From the IMG/VR virus record IMGVR_UViG_3300018915_000002: a DNA stretch of 64,000 nucleotides; one strand, 5' to 3'. The notes below the pieces were generated by a model. The model saw only the letters and a program-made list of their open reading frames with translations, did not search any database and was not told where the DNA came from. Below, piece by piece: positions 30,077 through 49,951 of this stretch. Made by a program: the position numbers and the translations under genes. The DNA is from a virus. Numbering within the stretch: the first letter of the stretch is position 1; each line of letters begins with the position of its first letter.

Positions 30077-30940
30077 CTACACGAACAACTCCGTAAGAAC
30101 AAGTTGGCGCGATCGCCCGTTCATCTTCTTCTCGTACTGAATGCCCAATGCCCGACGATCATCACCTGTAACCTTTTTCCTGCCTGCGTCGTATTCCCAG
30201 CTCATAGAGTCGCTTGTATCGACTAAGGCATCAACCAAGGAGTTTTTGAGGGCAGTGTCCTTTAGTCCAAATCCGTGCAACCTGATGTCGTGTAATCCTT
30301 GAGCTTTAAGCTCTCGGCGAATCGCAAGTAGTATTGCTTCCAATTCTTTAGGTTTGTCGTTTCGGTCACGAATGCTGCCAACACCAAGCCACATCCCCGG
30401 CTTCAGGCGATCGCTATATTGTCGAACGTGTGCCACATATTCTTCAGGTTGATATCCCTGAAGAACTGGCATAAGATACACATCAATGCCACGGGCATCA
30501 AGTAGCTTCTTGATCGCATCGTAGCGGTAGACGGTTAAGGACTGATGCCCCTCTACCGTTTGCTTCATTTTCTCTAGCATGAATGGCACACACATATAGT
30601 CTTGGGTCACAGCGGCGAGTAAATTGCCATGTCGATGCCAGTGTTCGATGAGTGTCACATACTCTGCAATAGACATCTGCGTCCCCATCGTGGCGAGGCA
30701 GGTGAAAGCACCAGAGTCTAGAATCCAGTTCTTAACCGGGAAAGGAGCTTTCCTTGCTGCTCGTTTTGCGGCTGAACGCCTAGGCTTAAAGGGTTTTTTG
30801 CGATCACTGTTCCAATACCATTTGAGCCAGCGATGCCAGTTCGATCCCCCATTCGTCGCCTTCAAACGATTCACAGATACCATGCAGTTCTCAAACAGCA
30901 CGGCATCCGGCAAGTCGTGTACGCCGATGAAAAACGTCAT
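30077..30940 (-). CDS. DpdA/queuine tRNA-ribosyltransferase-like (TGT-fold) protein
   Basis: WILDSGAFT...QDYMC...MPVLQG...GVGSI...LHGFGLK...SDSMSW. Confidence 0.8.
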   Translation of the reverse strand: MTFFIGVHDLPDAVLFENCMVSVNRLKATNGGSNWHRWLKWYWNSDRKKPFKPRRSAAKRAARKAPFPVKNWILDSGAFTCLATMGTQMSIAEYVTLIEHWHRHGNLLAAVTQDYMCVPFMLEKMKQTVEGHQSLTVYRYDAIKKLLDARGIDVYLMPVLQGYQPEEYVAHVRQYSDRLKPGMWLGVGSIRDRNDKPKELEAILLAIRRELKAQGLHDIRLHGFGLKDTALKNSLVDALVDTSDSMSWEYDAGRKKVTGDDRRALGIQYEKKMNGRSRQLVLTELFV

Positions 30941-31003
30941 GTTTTTGATTTTTCGATTTCTTATATTGTAACTTAACCGATATTTTTCTCTGGAAGTAGT
31001 CGT

Positions 31004-31017
31004 CACGGAGTTCCGTG
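31004..31017. repeat. CACGG-N4-CCGTG palindrome #9
   Basis: CACGGAGTTCCGTG, between divergent genes. Confidence 0.9.
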
Positions 31018-31057
31018 GCAAGGTATATTAAAGGGAATTGATACAAGGATTAAACCC

Positions 31058-33174: not shown

Positions 33175-34209
33175 ATGACAAAAAAAATTGCCGTTAGCCT
33201 ATTTTCCGGGGTGGGCGGACTTGACCTCGGCGTTCAACAGGCGGGCTTCGACGTAAAAGTCGCAGTCGAGATTGATCCAATACACGCCGAAACCCATGCC
33301 AATAATTTCCCTTATACACAAATGCTCAACACGTCCGTTCAGAATGTGACTGGAGCAGAGCTTTTAGAACTGACAAAAAGTCCCATAGACCTACTATTTG
33401 GCGGTTCACCGTGCCAAGATTTTTCAATTAATGGAAAACGTCAGATTGGCAACCGTGCTGTCCTAGTCTGGGATTTTTTCCGCTTGATTGCACAGTGCAA
33501 ACCTAACTATTTCCTATTTGAGAATGTGCCTGGACTTTCTCAAGGGAAACTAAAGCCACTCCTTGGTATGTTTTTGTCGCAATGCAGAAACTGCGGTTAC
33601 CAAGTGTCACATAAAATATTGAACGCAAAGGATTACCTTGTCCCTCAGGATAGGAAGCGCCTAATTGTTTTAGGAGCAAAGGTGGGTCTGCCTTTTCCTG
33701 ATTTCCCGAAACCGATAAAGGGGTACGTGAGTGCGAAGGATGCAATCGCCGATCTTCCGCCTCCCAATCCATCGGGATTTGCTCCCTATTCGGTTCTTAA
33801 GCCCCCTAGCACCTATGTTGAGAAATTGAACTTTGGGTATCCCACCCCTGAATTCATCACTGCGATTGAAGGCACTGAGCATTCTCAAGAGGTTCGAGAA
33901 CGCTTTGCCTACACAATTGCTGGAGAGCGAGACCCCATAAGTCGGTTCCCTCGCTTGCATCCAGATAGAGTTTCTCCAACACTCAAAGCGGGTACACCAT
34001 CCGAAAGGGGCGCACACACTGCTCCACGCCCAATTCACTACAGAAGCGATCGCGTCATCACTCCACGAGAGGCGGCACGGCTGCAATCGTTCCCAGACTG
34101 GTTTCAATTTGCAGATACCAAGTGGTATCAACTCATGCAAATTGGTAACTCTGTTCCGCCTTGGTTGGCGAGAACTGTAGCAAGTCAGATTTTTGAAGTA
34201 CTCCGCTAA
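33175..34209 (+). CDS. dcm: DNA (cytosine-5) methyltransferase
   Basis: LFSGVGG, GGSPCQDFS, ENVPG, VPQDRKR, TPREAARLQSFPD, QIGNSVPP. Confidence 0.95.
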   Translation: MTKKIAVSLFSGVGGLDLGVQQAGFDVKVAVEIDPIHAETHANNFPYTQMLNTSVQNVTGAELLELTKSPIDLLFGGSPCQDFSINGKRQIGNRAVLVWDFFRLIAQCKPNYFLFENVPGLSQGKLKPLLGMFLSQCRNCGYQVSHKILNAKDYLVPQDRKRLIVLGAKVGLPFPDFPKPIKGYVSAKDAIADLPPPNPSGFAPYSVLKPPSTYVEKLNFGYPTPEFITAIEGTEHSQEVRERFAYTIAGERDPISRFPRLHPDRVSPTLKAGTPSERGAHTAPRPIHYRSDRVITPREAARLQSFPDWFQFADTKWYQLMQIGNSVPPWLARTVASQIFEVLR

Positions 34210-39111: not shown

Positions 39112-40866
39112 CTAGGAGGCAGCGACTACTCCACTGCAAGCGATATACCAATCCTTAAGACCAGGATTCCGACCTTCCAGTGAACAAATTTCCTCAACGA
39201 GCTTGGTGCGATGCGCCCCAGTTCCGCCAGATCTGCGGTACGCTTGCAATTCGCCCTGAGCTTGGATGTAGCGAACTTGATCGCCTGCCATCGCTTGCTT
39301 TTCGGTATCCCCCTCAGCCCCACTGGCAACTAAGTCCACCAGATTCCTCGTGATGCGAGGAGGTTGCCGCTTGGGATTGATGGCATCCAAGATTTCACTT
39401 TTTAAGGATTCGCGATCGCCCTTAATTACCTCAGCCATCGCTTGCACTAACTCTGATCGTTCCTGCTTGCGCTGCTCTTCCGTCTGAGCTGTCTGCCGCT
39501 GAGCTTGGACTTCCTTACGTTCTGCTTGGATTTCGCCAACAACTTTTGAAAGTTCACCAACCTCAGTCCTCAATTCCTTTTGCCCTTCAATAGCCCGCTT
39601 ATTGTCTTCGGCGAGTCCACTCAGGGTTGTGTTCATTTGCTGGAAATAACGTTCAATTTGTTCTGCGTCCATGTCAGTTTCTAGTGAGGTAGTTTGGGCT
39701 GATGATGCTGCGACCTCTAATTCCGAGGATTCCGTTGCGGAGGGGTTTTCCTCTGCTGGGTCTTCATCAGAGGAAGCAGCAATTCTGGTTTGGGTCTTCT
39801 GGTAGGTGGCACGAGCGGCGTAGAGGATATTCGCCCCAAGGATTTCCAGAGAATCGATATGTGAAACTCTCGTCCCTCCAACAATCGCGGGACGAGTAAG
39901 GGCATGAGCGTTCATACTCATGCCTAAGATGTCTTGATTTGAGGCGATAAGCTGAACTTTCTCGCCTTGGCTCCAAGGGAACAGGTGGCCTTTTACAAGG
40001 AACTTATTCTCCTCAATCCGAGCCGAAGTCATGATGCCGACGATGTGGTTATTGGCGTGGCACGACAGGCTATCGTCAGCATCCAGGGGAAGTCCACCTG
40101 ATGCGTTAATTGCCGTAGCTGCTGCTTCAGCGACATGGCGAGGCACATAAAGGGGGAGGTCTGAACCCTTTGACGGAGCGCATTCTGATGGCTCATCAAT
40201 ATAGAAAAGAACCCCTTCAATTGGCAGGCAATTAGGCATCGAACGAGGCGATCGCACGGTAGCTGCCGCCTCAATTTCATGAACCTGGCACGTAAATTCC
40301 AGTTCCAGTTCCTTTGGTTGCCCTTGCGCCTGTACAACATCCTCGGTGGTCACGGAACTCCGTGGTTCCTCTTTCGCTGAGGCGTACATCGGATAATTGG
40401 GAGGTGGAAACATCATCTCCCCGTCGTACCCTGGAAACTTATCAATTTGATCTTCTAGGAAGTCATTGAGGTCATTCAGGATTTCTTGTGCGATCGCACT
40501 TCTATCCTTCTCGGTTCCGTAGTAGCGATCAATTTGGGTTTCCGTCATCATGAAAAGCCCCATAAAACGTGATCGAAACGTTTCAATCGCCGTAGAAATG
40601 GAACTTTGCCAAGCTTTGCTTTTCAGTTCCTCTCCAGCTTGTCCCGCTGCGATCGCGTCAGGTTCGGCTTCTTCCCCTAATTCCTCAATGCGATCTTCTA
40701 GCTGTTCTCCAAGCTTTTCGATGTCCCCCAAGAAACCACGCAAGTCATTAACGCTGGTTACTTTAGCGTCAACCAGGATGCTTCCCACTTCTTTGAAGAG
40801 GGATTTCATGCGATCAGTATTGCGTTGGGATAGAACTCGTCCAGCCGCTTCAAGAGTTTTTGCCAT
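39112..40866 (-). CDS. Prohead protease fused to coiled-coil scaffold
   Basis: Lies between portal and capsid. AGRVLSQRN N-terminus, central SCH...IVG...KGHLF...LGMSM...GANIL domain, C-terminal coiled coil. Confidence 0.7.
   Translation of the reverse strand: MAKTLEAAGRVLSQRNTDRMKSLFKEVGSILVDAKVTSVNDLRGFLGDIEKLGEQLEDRIEELGEEAEPDAIAAGQAGEELKSKAWQSSISTAIETFRSRFMGLFMMTETQIDRYYGTEKDRSAIAQEILNDLNDFLEDQIDKFPGYDGEMMFPPPNYPMYASAKEEPRSSVTTEDVVQAQGQPKELELEFTCQVHEIEAAATVRSPRSMPNCLPIEGVLFYIDEPSECAPSKGSDLPLYVPRHVAEAAATAINASGGLPLDADDSLSCHANNHIVGIMTSARIEENKFLVKGHLFPWSQGEKVQLIASNQDILGMSMNAHALTRPAIVGGTRVSHIDSLEILGANILYAARATYQKTQTRIAASSDEDPAEENPSATESSELEVAASSAQTTSLETDMDAEQIERYFQQMNTTLSGLAEDNKRAIEGQKELRTEVGELSKVVGEIQAERKEVQAQRQTAQTEEQRKQERSELVQAMAEVIKGDRESLKSEILDAINPKRQPPRITRNLVDLVASGAEGDTEKQAMAGDQVRYIQAQGELQAYRRSGGTGAHRTKLVEEICSLEGRNPGLKDWYIACSGVVAAS
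40351..40364. repeat. CACGG-N4-CCGTG palindrome #11 (intragenic)
   Basis: CACGGAACTCCGTG, in a linker of the protease/scaffold gene. Confidence 0.9.
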
Positions 40867-41089
40867 AATACGCAAAAAGCGGGGGCAGATATAGATATAT
40901 CTGCCCCCGCTTGAGGTTTTTAAATTTTGGTTTGGCTCTAATTATAGAGCCAAGATTGTTGGTTTTGCACTAGATTCAACATTTTCGATAAGCGCTGCAA
41001 CCAAATCAGTGAGCCAATCAAGGAGCATTGAATAATTTCATGGTTACTTAAGGCAATTGTAGGCGTTCCTATATTCCCAAGCAATCTGC

Positions 41090-42610
41090 TCAAAAAAGGC
41101 TTAACTGAATTGGTTCTTCCCTTGCTGACGCTTGAATCGTTACCTTTTTCGCCTTAGCTGCCACTTGCCTTCCGGCTGAAGGGTTCATTTTAGTCGGCTT
41201 TTTTCCGCCCTTTTTCCCGTTTTTTTCTGCGGCAGGAGTATCCTCCTCATCCTTCTTGGCATCCTCCTTTTTCGTCTCAGCTTTAGGATCTTTTTCAGCC
41301 TCCTCATTAGGATTTGGCTCCTCCCCTCCTTCTGCTGGTGCCTGACTTGCGTCAGCGGCGAAGTTGTCTTCTCCAGTAAGTGGAGGAAGTCCAACGAATG
41401 CACGACCTTCGTTCCGGGTGACCAGTTTCGCGGTCTGATAAAGCATATTCGCCCGATTCGCTTCATCAATTTCTTTGGTGGGCTGATCATCGGCAAGGCT
41501 GATGCTAAAACCTTCCGCATAGAAGTTAATGACTTTGTTATTAATATGCTCTACAATTGCTTGAGCAATAGGAAGGATAGCATCTTGAAACGAATGCGAT
41601 TGTGCGACATCAGCCGTCGCATAACTATCCTCTGACTGCGTGCCGAAATCTCTATGGCTGAGGCCAAATTCTAGGGCAAGCAAATTTGTGAGGTACGTGG
41701 TATACCCCATGTATAGCTCTTCATCATTCTTTGCCCCAAATTTTACTACACTGACCTTCCCCCCAATAACCGGGATTTCGCCCATCCCAACCACTTGGGT
41801 GCGCCAATACTCCCGAAAAGCGTCTATCTCATTGCCATCAGCGTCTTCGAGGGAAATCATGTAGTCGCGCACGGCATTATTTACGGTGCGCGTCTGATAT
41901 CCATGAAGCCCTAGCCAATGATTCATATCGTCATAAGCCAACCTCACCGGGGAAGGCGGGACGATATCCTGAGTCGATGCTCTCGACTGAATCAGGAACA
42001 TATTTTTGTTGTAGATTGGCACCCAGTCCTGCGGTTTGGCTCCCTTTGGAACGTACCAGAACCGAGGGTCAATGCCTTCTCGACTCGCATCCCAGTTAGG
42101 GTCAAGCTTAACCTGAGTGCAATCAACTGCCCATAACCAAAATGGTTGCGACTTGTTGTCGATTGGTGGCTGGCGCTCTATTACACCCGTACCGAATACC
42201 AATAAATCCCTAACAATCGCTTTAACAAGCTTGGTGTAGGTATCATGAATATCCTGCGAGGGTTCCTTTAATGCGGCTGTTAGCTCCTTTGCCTTATCGT
42301 GTGCTGCCTCGTTTTCCTTGTCCTCGTCCGGTGGCTTGATCGTCCATTGCATCGATGCCACACCATTCCCAATTCGCTCGATCGCACGATCAAACAAAAT
42401 GGTTTGGCTCATTTGCTTCAAGTCTTCTGGGGTAATTGACCCTTGCAAAGACTTGTAGAAGAAGCTGCGCGGATCAAAATATCCTCCAGCATCGGCTTGA
42501 GTGCGATCGCCAAGTACACTCAAGCGACGGTCAGCCCCTTGCGTGAAGGAGCGAGGAGAAGGCACGGTTGTGGCGGCGGCGCGTTGGATGGGGCGGACTT
42601 TAGATGGCAT
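41090..42610 (-). CDS. Portal protein
   Basis: RAIERIGNGVASMQW...VRDLLVFG...PSPVRLA...EFGLS..DFG...ILPIAQAI...IN...VTRNEGRAFVGLPP. Confidence 0.9.
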   Translation of the reverse strand: MPSKVRPIQRAAATTVPSPRSFTQGADRRLSVLGDRTQADAGGYFDPRSFFYKSLQGSITPEDLKQMSQTILFDRAIERIGNGVASMQWTIKPPDEDKENEAAHDKAKELTAALKEPSQDIHDTYTKLVKAIVRDLLVFGTGVIERQPPIDNKSQPFWLWAVDCTQVKLDPNWDASREGIDPRFWYVPKGAKPQDWVPIYNKNMFLIQSRASTQDIVPPSPVRLAYDDMNHWLGLHGYQTRTVNNAVRDYMISLEDADGNEIDAFREYWRTQVVGMGEIPVIGGKVSVVKFGAKNDEELYMGYTTYLTNLLALEFGLSHRDFGTQSEDSYATADVAQSHSFQDAILPIAQAIVEHINNKVINFYAEGFSISLADDQPTKEIDEANRANMLYQTAKLVTRNEGRAFVGLPPLTGEDNFAADASQAPAEGGEEPNPNEEAEKDPKAETKKEDAKKDEEDTPAAEKNGKKGGKKPTKMNPSAGRQVAAKAKKVTIQASAREEPIQLSLF

Positions 42611-42671
42611 GGGCAACAAAAAAAACCGAAGCTTTGGATAAGCCCCGGTGTGGGTTTTGTAAGTTTTAGGT

Positions 42672-42685
42672 CACGGAGTTCCGTG
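42672..42685. repeat. CACGG-N4-CCGTG palindrome #12
   Basis: CACGGAGTTCCGTG, upstream of portal. Confidence 0.9.
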
Positions 42686-42695
42686 GTGAGATTAA

Positions 42696-42887
42696 TTAAC
42701 GTTCGCGATCGCTGGTATACTCAAATTCCCCTTCCTTTAATGGATAGCAGGCATCTTTTGCGTCTGGGTAGAAGCTGTATACTTTGCCTCCACTATCGTC
42801 TATTCCGAAGTATTGAACCCAGCCTTCTTCTCCTGGTTTTTCATCATTGGGGCGATAGAGTATCCTAACGATTCTTGCCCTTCTCAC
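42696..42887 (-). CDS. Small hypothetical protein
   Basis: Coupled to the upstream ORF. Confidence 0.45.
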   Translation of the reverse strand: MRRARIVRILYRPNDEKPGEEGWVQYFGIDDSGGKVYSFYPDAKDACYPLKEGEFEYTSDRER

Positions 42888-43915
42888 GACTCGCTCCCCT
42901 TTTCTCCTAATTGAGACAAGGTAACGTACTGCTCCATCTGCGCCAACTCTCGGCGCTCCTCTGGAGTGGATTCCACGAATGAGAACGTGTTGCTAATGCC
43001 AAGGTTGTGCATCAGCCGATTAATGCCCTTATTGAGGATGACAGCAAGAGGAATGATCATCTCCTCATACCCTCCGCAATCCCCAAGTGATTTTCGTAGC
43101 GATTTCTCCATGTCTGTCCCTTCTAATAAGGGGACGTAGATATGGAATAAAACCCTAAGAGTGGCTTCTGCTATCCAATCTCCATACCCCTGGATATCGC
43201 TTGTCTGCCCTTCCCCCAGGATAATGCCTGTAGAGGGAGCGGGTGGCACAATTATCCCAGAACTGAGGCGCTGAGGTTTCTTCTCCTCTCCAAATTGGCT
43301 TTGCCACAACGAGGCATACCCTGACTTTGGCTCTGGGATTTCTTCTAGGGCTTTCTGGAGGGTGAGTGAGGCATCGAAGATGTGGACAAAGTCCATCTTG
43401 GGCAGTGAGTTTCGCTCACTTGTTACACCCAGCTTGGTTGCGATCGCATCCATTATCTGGTTGATCGGGGAGGGCAGCCCCCACATCTCATCGTGAGTGA
43501 TGTCAAATTTCCCGTAGGACGGGAATATCGCAATTTTCTGATCACTCAAATAGATGTCCCCGTTCTCTCGGTGATGATATACCCATCGGAAAGTTTCTTT
43601 TGGCTCTGTACTAGACCATCCCTTCAACGGGAAGAGTTCAGCCGGAAAGCATTGCATCAGTACGAACTTGGCATTATCAGTGATAGCCGTTTCGTAAGTG
43701 GCGAAGTTTAGCGGCAGCATATCTAGTAGTGTCCGCCTGATGAAACTTTCGTAACCCATGCCCTCGCCTGGGTAGGTGATCGCATGTTGTAAGGCTGTGT
43801 CTTCTGAAGCTAGTTCCCACGGGATAGCGGCAATCCTTGCCGCTATTCTTTCTACTATCGCCCGGAACGCTGGCACAGTGTCTCTGAATCTCAGTATATT
43901 TTGCAGGCTTTGCAT
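42884..43915 (-). CDS. Diverged second portal-like protein
   Basis: Collinear motif matches to the adjacent portal: RAIVERIAARIAAIPW, FIRRTLLDML, LPSPINQ, SLWQSQ, IIPLAVILNKGIN. Confidence 0.65.
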   Translation of the reverse strand: MQSLQNILRFRDTVPAFRAIVERIAARIAAIPWELASEDTALQHAITYPGEGMGYESFIRRTLLDMLPLNFATYETAITDNAKFVLMQCFPAELFPLKGWSSTEPKETFRWVYHHRENGDIYLSDQKIAIFPSYGKFDITHDEMWGLPSPINQIMDAIATKLGVTSERNSLPKMDFVHIFDASLTLQKALEEIPEPKSGYASLWQSQFGEEKKPQRLSSGIIVPPAPSTGIILGEGQTSDIQGYGDWIAEATLRVLFHIYVPLLEGTDMEKSLRKSLGDCGGYEEMIIPLAVILNKGINRLMHNLGISNTFSFVESTPEERRELAQMEQYVTLSQLGEKGSES

Positions 43916-43978
43916 GGATAGATGAATAATTTTTATTCCATTCTTTCATGTTTTACCTATGTTGGGCGGTTGATTGAC

Positions 43979-43992
43979 CACGGACTTCCGTG
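43979..43992. repeat. CACGG-N4-CCGTG palindrome #13
   Basis: CACGGACTTCCGTG. Confidence 0.9.
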
Positions 43993-44051
43993 ACACAAAG
44001 AAACCCCGCACCTTTTGGGGTACGGGGTTGGGGTGTGCGATCGCGCACTAC

Positions 44052-44618
44052 CTAGATTCGGTTAATGCCTTCCTTGATCAATACGGCTTCTCCATCATCT
44101 GAAACATAGAATTCGGAATGGCAATTATTGCACTTAAGTTCAAAACGTCCAGGTTGATATTGCTCAATTAATTCTTCTGTGGCATCGGAGCCGCAACTGG
44201 GGCAGGGAGGTACATTGGGAACCTCATCGAAAAATGGGCTAACGATATCGCCTAGAATCTTTGCTTTGCCAGCAATGGAATCTGGAGCCGTTCGACGTTT
44301 CTCAGAGTCTTTTCTGCTTGATATGGCACCACCTAAAACGGCATCACTGCTACCTGGGACACCAAAGAAGCGTCCAGCATTTTCCATGTCTTTGAGCGCG
44401 TGTTCTTGGATTAACAGTGCAATCCTTGCTTGCTCTAAAGTGAACCCTGAGATATTTGAAGTATCAAACCGGGTTTCCTGCCATTCTCCTGTTTCGGGAT
44501 CTGTGAATTGCCAAAAAGAGCAGTAGAACTCTCTTTCGTTGTTAAAGGTGTAGGAATATTTGCGCCCCCTGTAGTAGTCTTTGATCTCGGTTTCTATTTT
44601 TAATTTTATCGGTTTCAT
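44052..44618 (-). CDS. Accessory protein with C-terminal zinc ribbon (CPSC...CNNC)
   Basis: CxxC pairs; AGGAGCAAAGCCATG leader. Confidence 0.65.
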   Translation of the reverse strand: MKPIKLKIETEIKDYYRGRKYSYTFNNEREFYCSFWQFTDPETGEWQETRFDTSNISGFTLEQARIALLIQEHALKDMENAGRFFGVPGSSDAVLGGAISSRKDSEKRRTAPDSIAGKAKILGDIVSPFFDEVPNVPPCPSCGSDATEELIEQYQPGRFELKCNNCHSEFYVSDDGEAVLIKEGINRI

Positions 44619-46936: not shown

Positions 46937-49900
46937 ATGGTAGTTACAACCGAAACTGAAGCGATTAAAATCTTCGGTCCACCCATTGGGGCTGCTGGTG
47001 TACGGATCATTGAAAGGATCGGGACTAATCGAATTAATGGACCGAATTTTGGAGGAGTTGCCTTTGCTGCCCCCTTGAAGCGTGGTCCTTCTGGTGTGCC
47101 TGTGCCTGTTGCAACTCGTGAGCAGTATGATCGCATCTTTGGTGATCCCCGCGATACCAGATGGCACCTGTTCGCTGATGGCAGCTTCCTCACCCCTGAC
47201 GTAATCGACGGCTTCTTCACGATGAGTGTTGGGGCTGGCACGATCTGGATGATTCGCCTGGACTTGGAAGGGGAAGGGAAACGAGCAGAGGCGACTCTTC
47301 GGAATCGTTACGGCACTGAAATTTTGAAGTTCACGGCTGCTAACGAAGGTCGTTGGGCAGGCTATGGTCACGAAATTGAGATGACTCCTCTCATCGTCAC
47401 CACCTCCAAGACATTTACAATTCATGCCCCAGATATTAAAGCGAACGAGCTAGTGGGCTCGATCGCTTACTTCTCCTCTGGTAGTGGCAAGGGGTACGAA
47501 ATTGTTGCCAATACAAAGGCTTTTGATGGTGGGGAAGTAATTCTTACGATTTCTTCTCAATATGACTTAATTGCCGATGGGGTACATGGACCCGTCACAA
47601 TTGCAGGAACGGCTCGTTATAGCCGCTTGCGTAGAATCCCTGGAACAATTGCAGTTCCTCTGTATTCCAACCTTACGGGGACAGCAACAACTGCTGACCG
47701 GACGATTACGGGTACGGGTACTCGTTTTGACACAGAGCTTCAGGTAGGCGATAGCGTCTACTACCAAGGGGAGTCACGCGCTGTTGAATCTATTTCAAGT
47801 GCAACTACCCTAACAATTAGTGAACCCTTTACCGCAGATGGAGCAGGCGTTACTCTTCAACGAGATAATCTCATAGCCACGGGAACAGGAACTGATTTTA
47901 CTACCCTGCAACCAAGCGATCTTCTCTATGTTGTTGTTGACGGGCGAACCTACAGCCGCACCGTTGAAAGTATTAACTCTGCCACGTCAGTAACGCTAGA
48001 GTCTAGCTATCCAGTAGACGTAGGAGCAGGCACCCAAGCGCAGGTTAATAACTTCTGGGTCACCATCGTTGGAAACACTGATTTGGCGGCTTCACTTAAT
48101 GTTGGGGATGCGGTGATTGACCCCAACCGTCGCGGCGAAGCGGTTCAGGTGGTTGAAATTGATGCAGCGATGGGACGGATTCGCATTGACGAGCAATTTA
48201 GCCGTGATTTCACGGATGCTCAACTCGTCAAACAAAATCAATCTGTCCAAATTTCCCTCGCCTCCCCCAAAGGAAAAGGACTATCTGTTGAGGTTGCACC
48301 AGGAATCAAGTATCCTGCTACCCACTTCTCCTTGATGTTCTACTTCAATGGCTCCCGCCTCAAGGAAATGGACATTGCGGACGCTTCTCTTGACCCAACA
48401 GATTCCCTGTATGTTGTTCCTCTGGTCAATGATCGAAATATTGCTCATCGTGCTGGAAACAAGGTCTACTACACCTGGATAGAAGTAGAAAACCTCTTTA
48501 GTGGATCTTACACAACTGCCCCAACAAATGATGTACGCCCCTGGAATGGGTCAGGCGACATTCTTGCTGTAACGCCTCGACGCATCTACAGCGTTGGCGA
48601 TTTTGACTACGAGAGTGCCATCAATGCTCCCTTATACCCCAATCCTTACAGGTTTGCGCGACAAACCATCCGGGTCAAGGCGGCTCAGCCTCCAGTTGTC
48701 CTAGAAGGGACACTTTCAACAACAGGGGTTGAGGTTTTTGGTAGTGGAACCAACTTCCGCAGTCACTTCAAGAAGGGCGACTACCTCTACGATCCAACTA
48801 GCAATAGTGTTCGCATGGTGCGCGTCGTGACTGACGATGCAAGGATGACTCTGGATACTCGATTTGCTGCTGACATTCCTGCGGGAACCGTTGGACGGAA
48901 GGCTGGATATCTGCAAGCAGATTTGGGCGTGGATTTGACCAAGACTTGCAAAACAGGCGATCGCTTTATTGTTGCCTTCCAGAAATTTTTGAGTGGCGGT
49001 TACGACGGCGATCTTGGAAATATCACCCCATTCCATTACACCAAGTTCTTTAATACCGATCAAGACATTCTAGGACGTGCTGTCTATGGTAGCAACTTAG
49101 GACTAGTTCGGATCGCAACCCCTGATCGAACTGATATTGCGACTCAACTCCAAGGGGCAAATTATGCCTCTCAGACGGCGTTTGAGTACGTTCCTATGAT
49201 TCCTCCCACTGTCAGCTCGGCAGAAGAGGCAGAGGCGTTCGTCAATCTAGACCTGGGAAGAGATAACTTCATCTCCCCTGTTTTCCCTAGTTATGGCTTA
49301 ATTACCAACCCCTTGACCAATAATTCAAAGCGTCTCATACCTTTGATAGGTGACATGATGGGCGTTGAGAGCTACTTTGCAAATCTTCATCGTGGGTATC
49401 ACTACCCTGCGGCCGGCATAGATGCCCGTTTAACGCGAATTGAGCAGCTTCCGGTCGATCTTTCGCCAAAAGACCAAGCAACGCTCAATAATGCTGGCAT
49501 TCGCCCCATTATACGCATGTTTGGTCGCACTATCCCGTTTGGTGCAGAGGTTCCGGCAACGGATAGCATTTACACGTTCTTGCATGTTCGACGAATTCAA
49601 AGCAATTACGTGCGCCTCCTAATGGAGTCGATGCCACTGATTCGGTCATTATTCAAGCCGAACCAGCCAGATTTGGCAGATCGCATCCAAATGATTTTGG
49701 ATAATTATTTCCGAGGAGAGTACAAGAACGGAGTACTAAATAATTTCCGGACTTACGAACAGGCGATCCAAATCACGGTGCAGTCTCCCTTAGCAAGGAA
49801 CAGCATCGAAAACGAGAATACCCAAGACATGATGGTCGCTTTAGCTAACGGAGACCTGGACGTTTACATCACTTACTTACCAACGGGTATTCTAAAGAAC

Positions 49901-49951
49901 TTGTATATCAATTTAGGACCCGATCTTGTCACCGCATCTTTCACCTCGTAG
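46937..49951 (+). CDS. Contractile tail sheath protein with inserted beta domains
   Basis: AGVRIIE...LKRGPSGVPV.V...FG...GFF...A.NEGRW...LSGGYDG...HYPAAG...LNNAGI.PI...LHVRR...LFKPN. Confidence 0.92.
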   Translation: MVVTTETEAIKIFGPPIGAAGVRIIERIGTNRINGPNFGGVAFAAPLKRGPSGVPVPVATREQYDRIFGDPRDTRWHLFADGSFLTPDVIDGFFTMSVGAGTIWMIRLDLEGEGKRAEATLRNRYGTEILKFTAANEGRWAGYGHEIEMTPLIVTTSKTFTIHAPDIKANELVGSIAYFSSGSGKGYEIVANTKAFDGGEVILTISSQYDLIADGVHGPVTIAGTARYSRLRRIPGTIAVPLYSNLTGTATTADRTITGTGTRFDTELQVGDSVYYQGESRAVESISSATTLTISEPFTADGAGVTLQRDNLIATGTGTDFTTLQPSDLLYVVVDGRTYSRTVESINSATSVTLESSYPVDVGAGTQAQVNNFWVTIVGNTDLAASLNVGDAVIDPNRRGEAVQVVEIDAAMGRIRIDEQFSRDFTDAQLVKQNQSVQISLASPKGKGLSVEVAPGIKYPATHFSLMFYFNGSRLKEMDIADASLDPTDSLYVVPLVNDRNIAHRAGNKVYYTWIEVENLFSGSYTTAPTNDVRPWNGSGDILAVTPRRIYSVGDFDYESAINAPLYPNPYRFARQTIRVKAAQPPVVLEGTLSTTGVEVFGSGTNFRSHFKKGDYLYDPTSNSVRMVRVVTDDARMTLDTRFAADIPAGTVGRKAGYLQADLGVDLTKTCKTGDRFIVAFQKFLSGGYDGDLGNITPFHYTKFFNTDQDILGRAVYGSNLGLVRIATPDRTDIATQLQGANYASQTAFEYVPMIPPTVSSAEEAEAFVNLDLGRDNFISPVFPSYGLITNPLTNNSKRLIPLIGDMMGVESYFANLHRGYHYPAAGIDARLTRIEQLPVDLSPKDQATLNNAGIRPIIRMFGRTIPFGAEVPATDSIYTFLHVRRIQSNYVRLLMESMPLIRSLFKPNQPDLADRIQMILDNYFRGEYKNGVLNNFRTYEQAIQITVQSPLARNSIENENTQDMMVALANGDLDVYITYLPTGILKNLYINLGPDLVTASFTS

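Follow-up and report, generated by a model that had tools for sequence, protein, structure and literature searches.

The window analysed here is a stretch of 64,000 nucleotides (nt) of viral DNA, recorded as IMG/VR virus record IMGVR_UViG_3300018915_000002, whose minus strand carries a module of head genes. Within this module two neighbouring genes are related to phage portals. One encodes a complete HK97-family portal, and the other, located immediately upstream of it, is an open reading frame (ORF) of 343 amino acids (aa), hereafter ORF343, which is almost certainly a crown-less paralog of this portal that the phage has retained. The two genes are the following:

42884-43915, minus strand: ORF343 (P0001), 343 aa, 38.6 kDa, isoelectric point (pI) 5.0, ATG start; almost certainly a crown-less, core-only portal paralog
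41090-42610, minus strand: canonical HK97-family portal (P0002), 506 aa, ATG at 42610, with an upstream TTG at 42619 that is also open

Both genes had been called at these positions in the first-pass annotation of this DNA, and both calls are borne out. In particular, ORF343 is encoded on the minus strand from an ATG and its N-terminus lines up with the N-termini of its homologs, and its neighbour is a true portal according to both Pfam (PF04860, E 3e-20) and PHROG (portal, E 5e-29). Both proteins are acidic, with a pI of 5.2 for the portal versus 5.0 for ORF343.

The sequence of this portal sits on a contig of 242,772 bp, and its relatives are carried by contigs of 243-245 kb. Moreover, the window encodes a sheath protein and contains 57 copies of the cyanobacterial HIP1 octamer GCGATCGC, versus 0.8 expected. 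Contig size, sheath gene and HIP1 excess together therefore identify the source phage as a jumbo myovirus of a cyanobacterium, with a genome of about 243 kb, and the octamer points to a HIP1-rich cyanobacterium as host, probably a filamentous one living in soil crusts. The HIP1 octamer is present in intergenic regions of related loci too. When 50,697 deposited phage genomes were searched by tblastn, no close relative of the phage was found; specifically, there was no match for ORF343, and the portal had only three weak matches, all of them portals.

Homology and predicted fold of ORF343

Direct sequence comparison of ORF343 with the adjacent portal gives no significant BLASTP match (best E 0.24), the identity between the two proteins being about 16-18%, and ORF343 searched alone has no Pfam (E<=1) or PHROG match. 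In addition, a profile of the ORF343 family retrieves nothing at E<=10 from all PDB sequences, hence no solved portal, and the only PDB sequence match of the portal family is the phage 812 portal (E 5e-11). Profile comparisons between the two families were based on three alignments, namely the ORF343 family (A1), 17 portals of the same phage group (A2) and the ORF343 family together with its short forms (A3). Alignment of A1 with A2 by hhalign returns a probability of 93.2% and E 3e-7 over 306 collinear columns, connecting residues 2-337 of ORF343 with residues 62-398 of the portal, and the addition of the short forms in A3 raises the probability to 95.6%, with E 1.2e-8 over about 304-306 columns. 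In control comparisons, in which the alignments were reversed or unrelated, E was 0.04-0.84 and no more than 48 columns were aligned. When all ORFs in the six frames of the window and of 14 related loci were searched with a hidden Markov model (HMM) built from the ORF343 family, the only matches outside the family itself were portals (E 8e-7 to 9e-5), and reciprocally a portal HMM recovers the short forms (E 4e-5).

The same relationship is seen with the curated portal profile. PF04860 is found below threshold in 4 of 10 family members, always in one register that pairs residues 16-~162 with profile positions 3-146; the scores of the orthologs P0011-P0014 are 12.8-20.5 bits (E 3e-4 to 0.07), and the curated threshold of 39.1 bits is not reached. 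Furthermore, a joint MAFFT alignment of 25 sequences contains 10 columns that are invariant across the two families (F17, D65, L67, E75, F84, L86, W100, S149, P150 and W204 in ORF343 numbering), common to ORF343 and to the co-resident portal and its orthologs (P0019-P0044), whose genes are adjacent to it and on the same strand. Among all the sequences found, it is the family of the co-resident portal that is most closely related to ORF343. The first-pass annotation had proposed this homology from matches aligned by eye (FRAIVERI/FDRAIERI, LQHAITYP/LTAALKEP, PSP, SLWQSQ/EYWRTQ and EMIIPLAV/DAILPIAQ), all five of which fall inside the hhalign alignment; it had also placed the end of the similarity at the beginning of the VTRNEGR crown motif, and the alignment ends indeed at portal residue 398, just before it.

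Structure prediction leads to the same family. An AlphaFold2 model built from the ORF343-family alignment only, with a predicted local distance difference test (pLDDT) of 52, has portals as all of its top 10 Foldseek matches and of its top 13 VIA-align matches (Z 5.2-7.0). A second model, built from the joint alignment, reaches a pLDDT of 63.6 (75-88 in the wing) and a Foldseek E of 2.4e-8, and VIA-align superposes it on the phage 812 portal with Z 13.5 and a root-mean-square deviation of 4.4 Å over 212 residues; all the 50 VIA-align matches listed for this model are portals, and its BFVD matches are portals or COG4695. Finally, an alignment-free, single-sequence model from the ESM Atlas gives PF04860 clusters at template-modelling (TM) scores of 0.55-0.58. 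In other words, three fold searches, including the Foldseek search that had been named as a check, have only portals on top, and sequence profiles and fold agree that ORF343 is a diverged portal homolog, as had been claimed from the sequence.

The layout of ORF343, derived from the alignment to portal residues 62-398 and from predicted secondary structure, is given below, with domain names that we assigned by assuming the standard portal topology:

residues ~1-146: N-wing
residues ~147-199: alpha-3 (stem down)
residues ~200-240: alpha-4 and clip
residues ~241-266: alpha-5 (stem up)
residues ~267-282: tunnel-loop equivalent
residues ~283-305: alpha-6
residues ~306-337: beta strand and one C-terminal helix

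Wing and alpha-6 are well modelled, and their predicted structures match portals with Z up to 13.5. Over residues 1-~320 ORF343 is predicted to belong to the same fold class as the HK97-family portals (PF04860, COG4695; Z 13.5-12.0, Foldseek E 2e-8 to 7e-6), the nearest solved structure being the portal of Staphylococcus phage 812 (PDB 8Q7D/8QEM), with further solved examples in the portals of HK97 (8CEZ/8FQL), of the Rhodobacter gene transfer agent (6TBA) and of Agrobacterium phage Milano (8FWB). Wing, alpha-3, clip, alpha-5, alpha-6 and the first crown helix of these portals are collinear in ORF343. Unlike portals, ORF343 has no N-terminal extension (60 residues in the co-resident portal) and no crown beyond the first helix, including the TxNExR...GGD motif, and it is also without the K/E-rich C-terminal tail of the co-resident portal. 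All ten long-form members of the family stop 6-20 residues past the first crown helix, whereas the portals go on with TRNEGR...GLPPL...GGD; the earlier observation that ORF343 stops before the crown is thus accurate, with the refinement that the first crown helix is kept and most of the crown is missing. The clip and tunnel signatures that are invariant in the portals (GEIP, NDEEL and FGLxxRDxG) are replaced, and the clip region keeps a beta-hairpin-like sequence pattern. ORF343 is predicted to keep the portal fold but departs from portals in Pfam threshold, crown, universality and conservation pattern.

The lack of a BLASTP match and of a Pfam or PHROG match for ORF343 alone would favour a different reading, that is, a chance similarity or a decaying duplicate. 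Chance similarity was ruled out, as profile, fold and language-model evidence all give portals and the controls are clean. This evidence, together with the intact and selected state of the gene described below, excludes both versions, and we regard this reading as hardly credible.

Distribution, selection and regional constraint

Nine homologs of ORF343 were found, with 49-62% identity and a length of 331-356 aa, along with two distant short relatives, P0017 and P0018 (236-245 aa), which lack the region ~147-270, corresponding to stem and clip, but in which wing, alpha-6 and C-terminal helix are preserved. An exhaustive HMMER search of 1.84 billion representatives returned three relatives only, no further family member emerged from a profile search covering 5.8 billion proteins, and scans of the viral_contigs and metagenome_contigs collections contained none. 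With so few relatives in such large searches, the family is tiny and its alignments are shallow.

The long forms have a fixed location. ORF343 lies directly upstream of the portal gene, on the same strand, in 8 of 8 loci (the window, L001-L004, L012, L013 and L014). No copy is found beside the portal in L009, L010 and L011, whose portals belong to the same group (42-55% identity) and for which about 13 kb per genome is covered. In a phage with a distant-type portal, the gene for the short form P0018 adjoins a TnpB gene, and a GpA-type large terminase gene is located three genes upstream of it. The family thus predates the long-form clade and has been moved or truncated. In several relatives it is not kept beside the portal, and we take it to be accessory. 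As for its origin, the fact that the nearest relative is the co-resident portal and that no solved portal is detected by profile would fit a duplication within the lineage followed by accelerated divergence. A possible alternative is a recombination of modules through which a portal linked to a terminase was acquired.

In all six genomes for which DNA is available the reading frame of ORF343 is intact and free of stops, although the synonymous substitution rate (dS) is saturated in most pairs. Where dS can be estimated, the ratio of nonsynonymous to synonymous substitution rates (dN/dS) is 0.07-0.18. Specifically, between L004 and L012 ORF343 has dN 0.140, dS 0.80 and dN/dS 0.175, compared with dN 0.009 and dN/dS 0.015 for the portal and a dN/dS of 0.05 for the scaffold-like gene; between L004 and L014, dN/dS is 0.13 for ORF343, 0.05 for the portal and 0.015 for the capsid protein. 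Intact frames despite saturated dS, together with low dN/dS, therefore indicate that the gene is maintained by selection. This selection is of the ordinary purifying type, with no diversifying signal at the level of the gene. The proposal that ORF343 is intact rather than decaying, for which dN/dS had been named as a check, is in line with the values of 0.13-0.18, and a pseudogene was ruled out, the gene being intact at 331-356 aa in ten cluster representatives and under such constraint across lineages with saturated dS.

At the same time, ORF343 evolves 3-10 times faster than the portal, with dN values 3-15 times as high when both genes are compared within the same pairs of genomes. Across the same six genomes the portals are 78-98% identical and the ORF343 proteins 50-79%; in the closest pair the values are 98% for the portal and 79% for ORF343. 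The distribution of constraint along the protein is also inverted. In the six genomes, the mean pairwise identity of ORF343 is 0.64 in the wing, 0.69 in alpha-6, 0.50 in the clip and 0.43 at the C-terminus, versus 0.86 in the wing and 0.91-0.93 in stem, clip and alpha-6 of the portal. That is, the clip, stem and tunnel-loop equivalents are less conserved in ORF343 and best conserved in the co-resident portal, so that the two proteins show opposite regional constraint. Moreover, ortholog P0014 carries a natural deletion inside the clip. Constraint on wing and alpha-6, the clip deletion and the short forms without stem and clip together place the function of the family in the wing and alpha-6 surface, and therefore not in the channel or in the terminase-docking clip.

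These data bear on the possibility that ORF343 forms a second, independent portal, i.e., a homo-dodecameric channel for another vertex or for another capsid form. Its 343 aa are within the size range of small portals, as PF04860 clusters of about 355 aa exist in the ESM Atlas, and all core elements are present by alignment. However, ORF343 has lost the crown and the conserved motifs of clip and tunnel, its clip is the part under the weakest constraint, related phages have no copy next to their portal, and a second major capsid or scaffold paralog was looked for in the window and not found. Such a channel is very unlikely. ORF343 is not the DNA-translocating portal of this phage; the adjacent 506-aa gene encodes it.

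Possible roles of ORF343

In our favoured interpretation, ORF343, which looks like an old and expressed gene, would be an accessory head-assembly factor that acts at the portal vertex or in its vicinity. With the portal-like surface of its wing and alpha-6 it would bind partners of portal wings, such as portal protomers, scaffold or capsid protein, and it might for example nucleate, cap or limit the incorporation of the portal ring. An accessory head role is suggested by the fixed place in the head module, by the wing-centred constraint, by the fact that clip and crown can be dispensed with, and by the lack of an adjacent copy in several relatives. The link to the head module consists of the position of ORF343 immediately upstream of the portal in the eight loci and of the proximity of the short form P0018 to a large terminase. 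Taken jointly, identity as a portal paralog and an accessory role in head assembly have in our estimate a roughly even chance of being correct.

The first-pass annotation had suggested three roles, namely a hetero-oligomeric portal subunit, a second special vertex or a dominant-negative decoy; the data lean against a ring subunit and against a second DNA channel. A possibility closer to the canonical function is that ORF343 is an integral part of a hetero-oligomeric portal, mixed or alternating with the 506-aa protein in one ring, or stacked on it as a second ring, and kept in the virion. The full wing-stem-clip core collinear with the portal, the similar acidic pI, the strict adjacency of the two genes in eight loci and the hairpin-like pattern of the clip would all suit a subunit of this kind. 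On the other hand, extensive lateral interfaces are hard to square with 98% versus 79% identity (dN 0.009 versus 0.140) in the same pair of genomes, the most constrained parts of the portal are the least constrained ones of ORF343, the clip is deleted in one ortholog and forms without stem and clip exist, and no adjacent copy exists in relatives that share the portal type. We consider this arrangement unlikely. A complex prediction of the portal core (residues 55-430) with ORF343 returned no answer (score 0.00) and has no bearing either way.

Two terminator-like hairpins flank ORF343:

42625-42649, minus strand: hairpin followed by a U-run, in the gap from ORF343 to the portal; its end is 14 nt upstream of the portal ATG
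44002-44029, minus strand: hairpin of 11 pairs, 7 of them GC, with a T-run, after the upstream 188-aa gene

Having hairpins on both sides, ORF343 is predicted to occupy its own transcript segment. The hairpin before the portal is kept, with compensatory stem changes, in five of five relatives (L001, L004, L012, L013 and L014; its equivalents are at 9108-9150 in L001 and 9073-9110 in L004), and its role may be that of an attenuator or leader and not simply of a terminator.

Bacterial hosts are able to sense portals, as described for Avs4 and for the ring-activated RNase RAZR (PMC13017515). ORF343 might be a conflict protein, that is, a mimic of the portal wing that intercepts portal-sensing immunity or poisons the portal assembly of co-infecting rivals. 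In this scenario ORF343 and its short relatives would be decoys against Avs4-like or RAZR-like sensors, or poisons of competitors' portals from which the phage's own conserved portal escapes. A rate 3-10 times that of the portal, the patchy and accessory distribution, short forms that lack the channel parts, one of which lies among integrases and non-structural genes, and the separate transcript segment between hairpins are all in favour of this role. Against it, dN/dS of 0.13-0.18 corresponds to ordinary purifying selection with no diversifying sign at gene level, a protein resembling the portal should activate portal sensors rather than block them, the position in the head module is fixed in eight loci, and no defence or anti-defence family match turned up for ORF343, although none was sought and PADLOC was not searched. 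In our judgement this role is distinctly unlikely.

Several observations weigh against the interpretation of ORF343 as a portal-derived head-assembly factor. Fast evolution, patchy distribution and a dispensable clip suit a non-structural conflict role equally well. The gene for the short form P0017 adjoins two integrase genes and replication genes, not head genes, and the conserved hairpin between ORF343 and the portal means that co-expression of the two is not assured. With regard to the fold, the joint-alignment model is biased towards a portal, because true portals were present in its alignment, and the stem and clip region (158-244) has pLDDT below 50 in both models, so that portal-like geometry there rests on alignment and secondary structure only.

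In the textbook view, tailed phages and herpesviruses have one portal gene, one dodecamer and one vertex. Compared with this scheme and with the HK97-family portals in general, ORF343 is an additional copy located beside a complete portal; it changes more rapidly, and not every relative has it. The open-access literature searched contained no phage with two genes of portal type. Duplication of other head genes has precedents. Gp24 of phage T4 is a vertex paralog of the capsid protein gp23, with a defined structural place. In the giant phage SPN3US, a diverged paralog of the prohead protease is present (PMC5694885). The principle is the same as for ORF343, namely a head gene that was duplicated in a large myovirus and whose diverged copy was kept under selection near the original; those cases concern a capsid protein and a protease, whereas ORF343 concerns the portal.

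In the clade of ~243-kb cyanophages considered here, a conserved and selected second portal-type gene lies by the real portal, and a sister clade has truncated versions reduced to the wing. Duplication of the portal fold and its reuse for a different purpose are thus possible. If confirmed, a role in assembly would bear on the open question of how one portal per capsid is placed. A part in the virion would break the rule of one gene, one ring, and a decoy would be a novel type of response to immunity based on portal sensing. A practical limit is that the phage is known from metagenomes only.

Local signals and the surrounding head module

The first-pass annotation had described ORF343 as bracketed by palindromes. 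The two copies of the 14-bp palindrome CACGGAANTCCGTG are both real, but they are not specific to ORF343, since about 20 sites, mostly intergenic, occur in the window, with 37 strand matches at up to one mismatch versus 0.06 expected:

43979-43992: copy upstream of ORF343
42672-42685: copy downstream of ORF343 and upstream of the portal
10414, 17701, 20101, 24550, 29834, 31004, 36353, 46291, 51823, 54473, 57579, 60031 and 61041: examples of further sites
40351: one site inside the 587-aa gene

The idea that these palindromes mark an ORF343 cassette was therefore rejected, the motif being genome-wide; it is probably a transcription or RNA signal used throughout the phage genome. A second signal is found in the leader of ORF343:

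43940-43954, minus strand: leader motif AAAACATGAAAGAAT, located 25-39 nt before the start codon of ORF343, once in the window

Variants of this motif (consensus AAAACATGRAAsAAT) are located upstream of the orthologs in L001, L004, L012 and L013. Its ATG, at 43949, opens an out-of-frame ORF of 90 codons here and of 3 codons in L004 and L012, and P0010 has an in-frame N-terminal extension that starts with MKQW. The motif may correspond to a regulatory site or to a small ORF in the leader; a promoter common to other genes was rejected on the basis of its single occurrence in the window.

The order of the minus-strand head module is the 188-aa gene, ORF343, a 63-codon ORF, the portal, the 587-aa gene, the capsid gene, the 163-aa gene and the adaptor gene. 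Besides the portal and ORF343, this region includes:

44052-44618, minus strand: 188-aa zinc-ribbon protein, the gene upstream of ORF343
42696-42887, minus strand: 63-codon ORF, whose GTG start overlaps the ORF343 stop and which fills the gap to the portal
39112-40875, minus strand: 587-aa coiled-coil, scaffold-like protein, with a weak coiled-coil Pfam match (DUF7491) only
minus strand: major capsid protein, 356 aa, with a weak PHROG 212 match
minus strand: 163-aa protein, after the capsid gene
minus strand: head-tail adaptor, PHROG 442
46937-49951, plus strand: sheath protein, 1004 aa, with the PHROG 23 sheath core, in the opposite direction to the head module

The 63-codon ORF has no counterpart in the related loci, where L013 has an unrelated 89-aa ORF in this place and the others none, and it is probably lineage-specific or spurious. 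The 587-aa gene, located between the portal and capsid genes, is 70-96% conserved in relatives with a dN/dS of 0.04-0.12, and its product is probably a scaffold, perhaps fused to a protease. The GpA-type large terminase of L007 has no homolog within the window. The sheath is unusually long and decorated, measuring 1004-1008 aa in all relatives, and in addition to its core it contains tail-fibre-like segments (PHROG 1980 at residues 305-358).

Two genes with a predicted role in DNA modification are found near the head module:

30077-31021, minus strand: DpdA-like gene (PF23859, E 1.6e-24), 7-deazaguanine DNA modification
33175-34209, plus strand: C5 cytosine methyltransferase (E 2e-62)

Finally, in relatives the gap between the portal and the scaffold-like gene of 58x aa is a hotspot for mobile elements, including a group II intron reverse transcriptase with HNH, TnpB (OrfB_IS605) and a MerR-resolvase, and a TnpB also adjoins the short portal-like gene; the coordinates concerned are 4432-6162 in L012, 3396-4787 in L014, 11632-12243 in L001 and 9062-10357 in L007.

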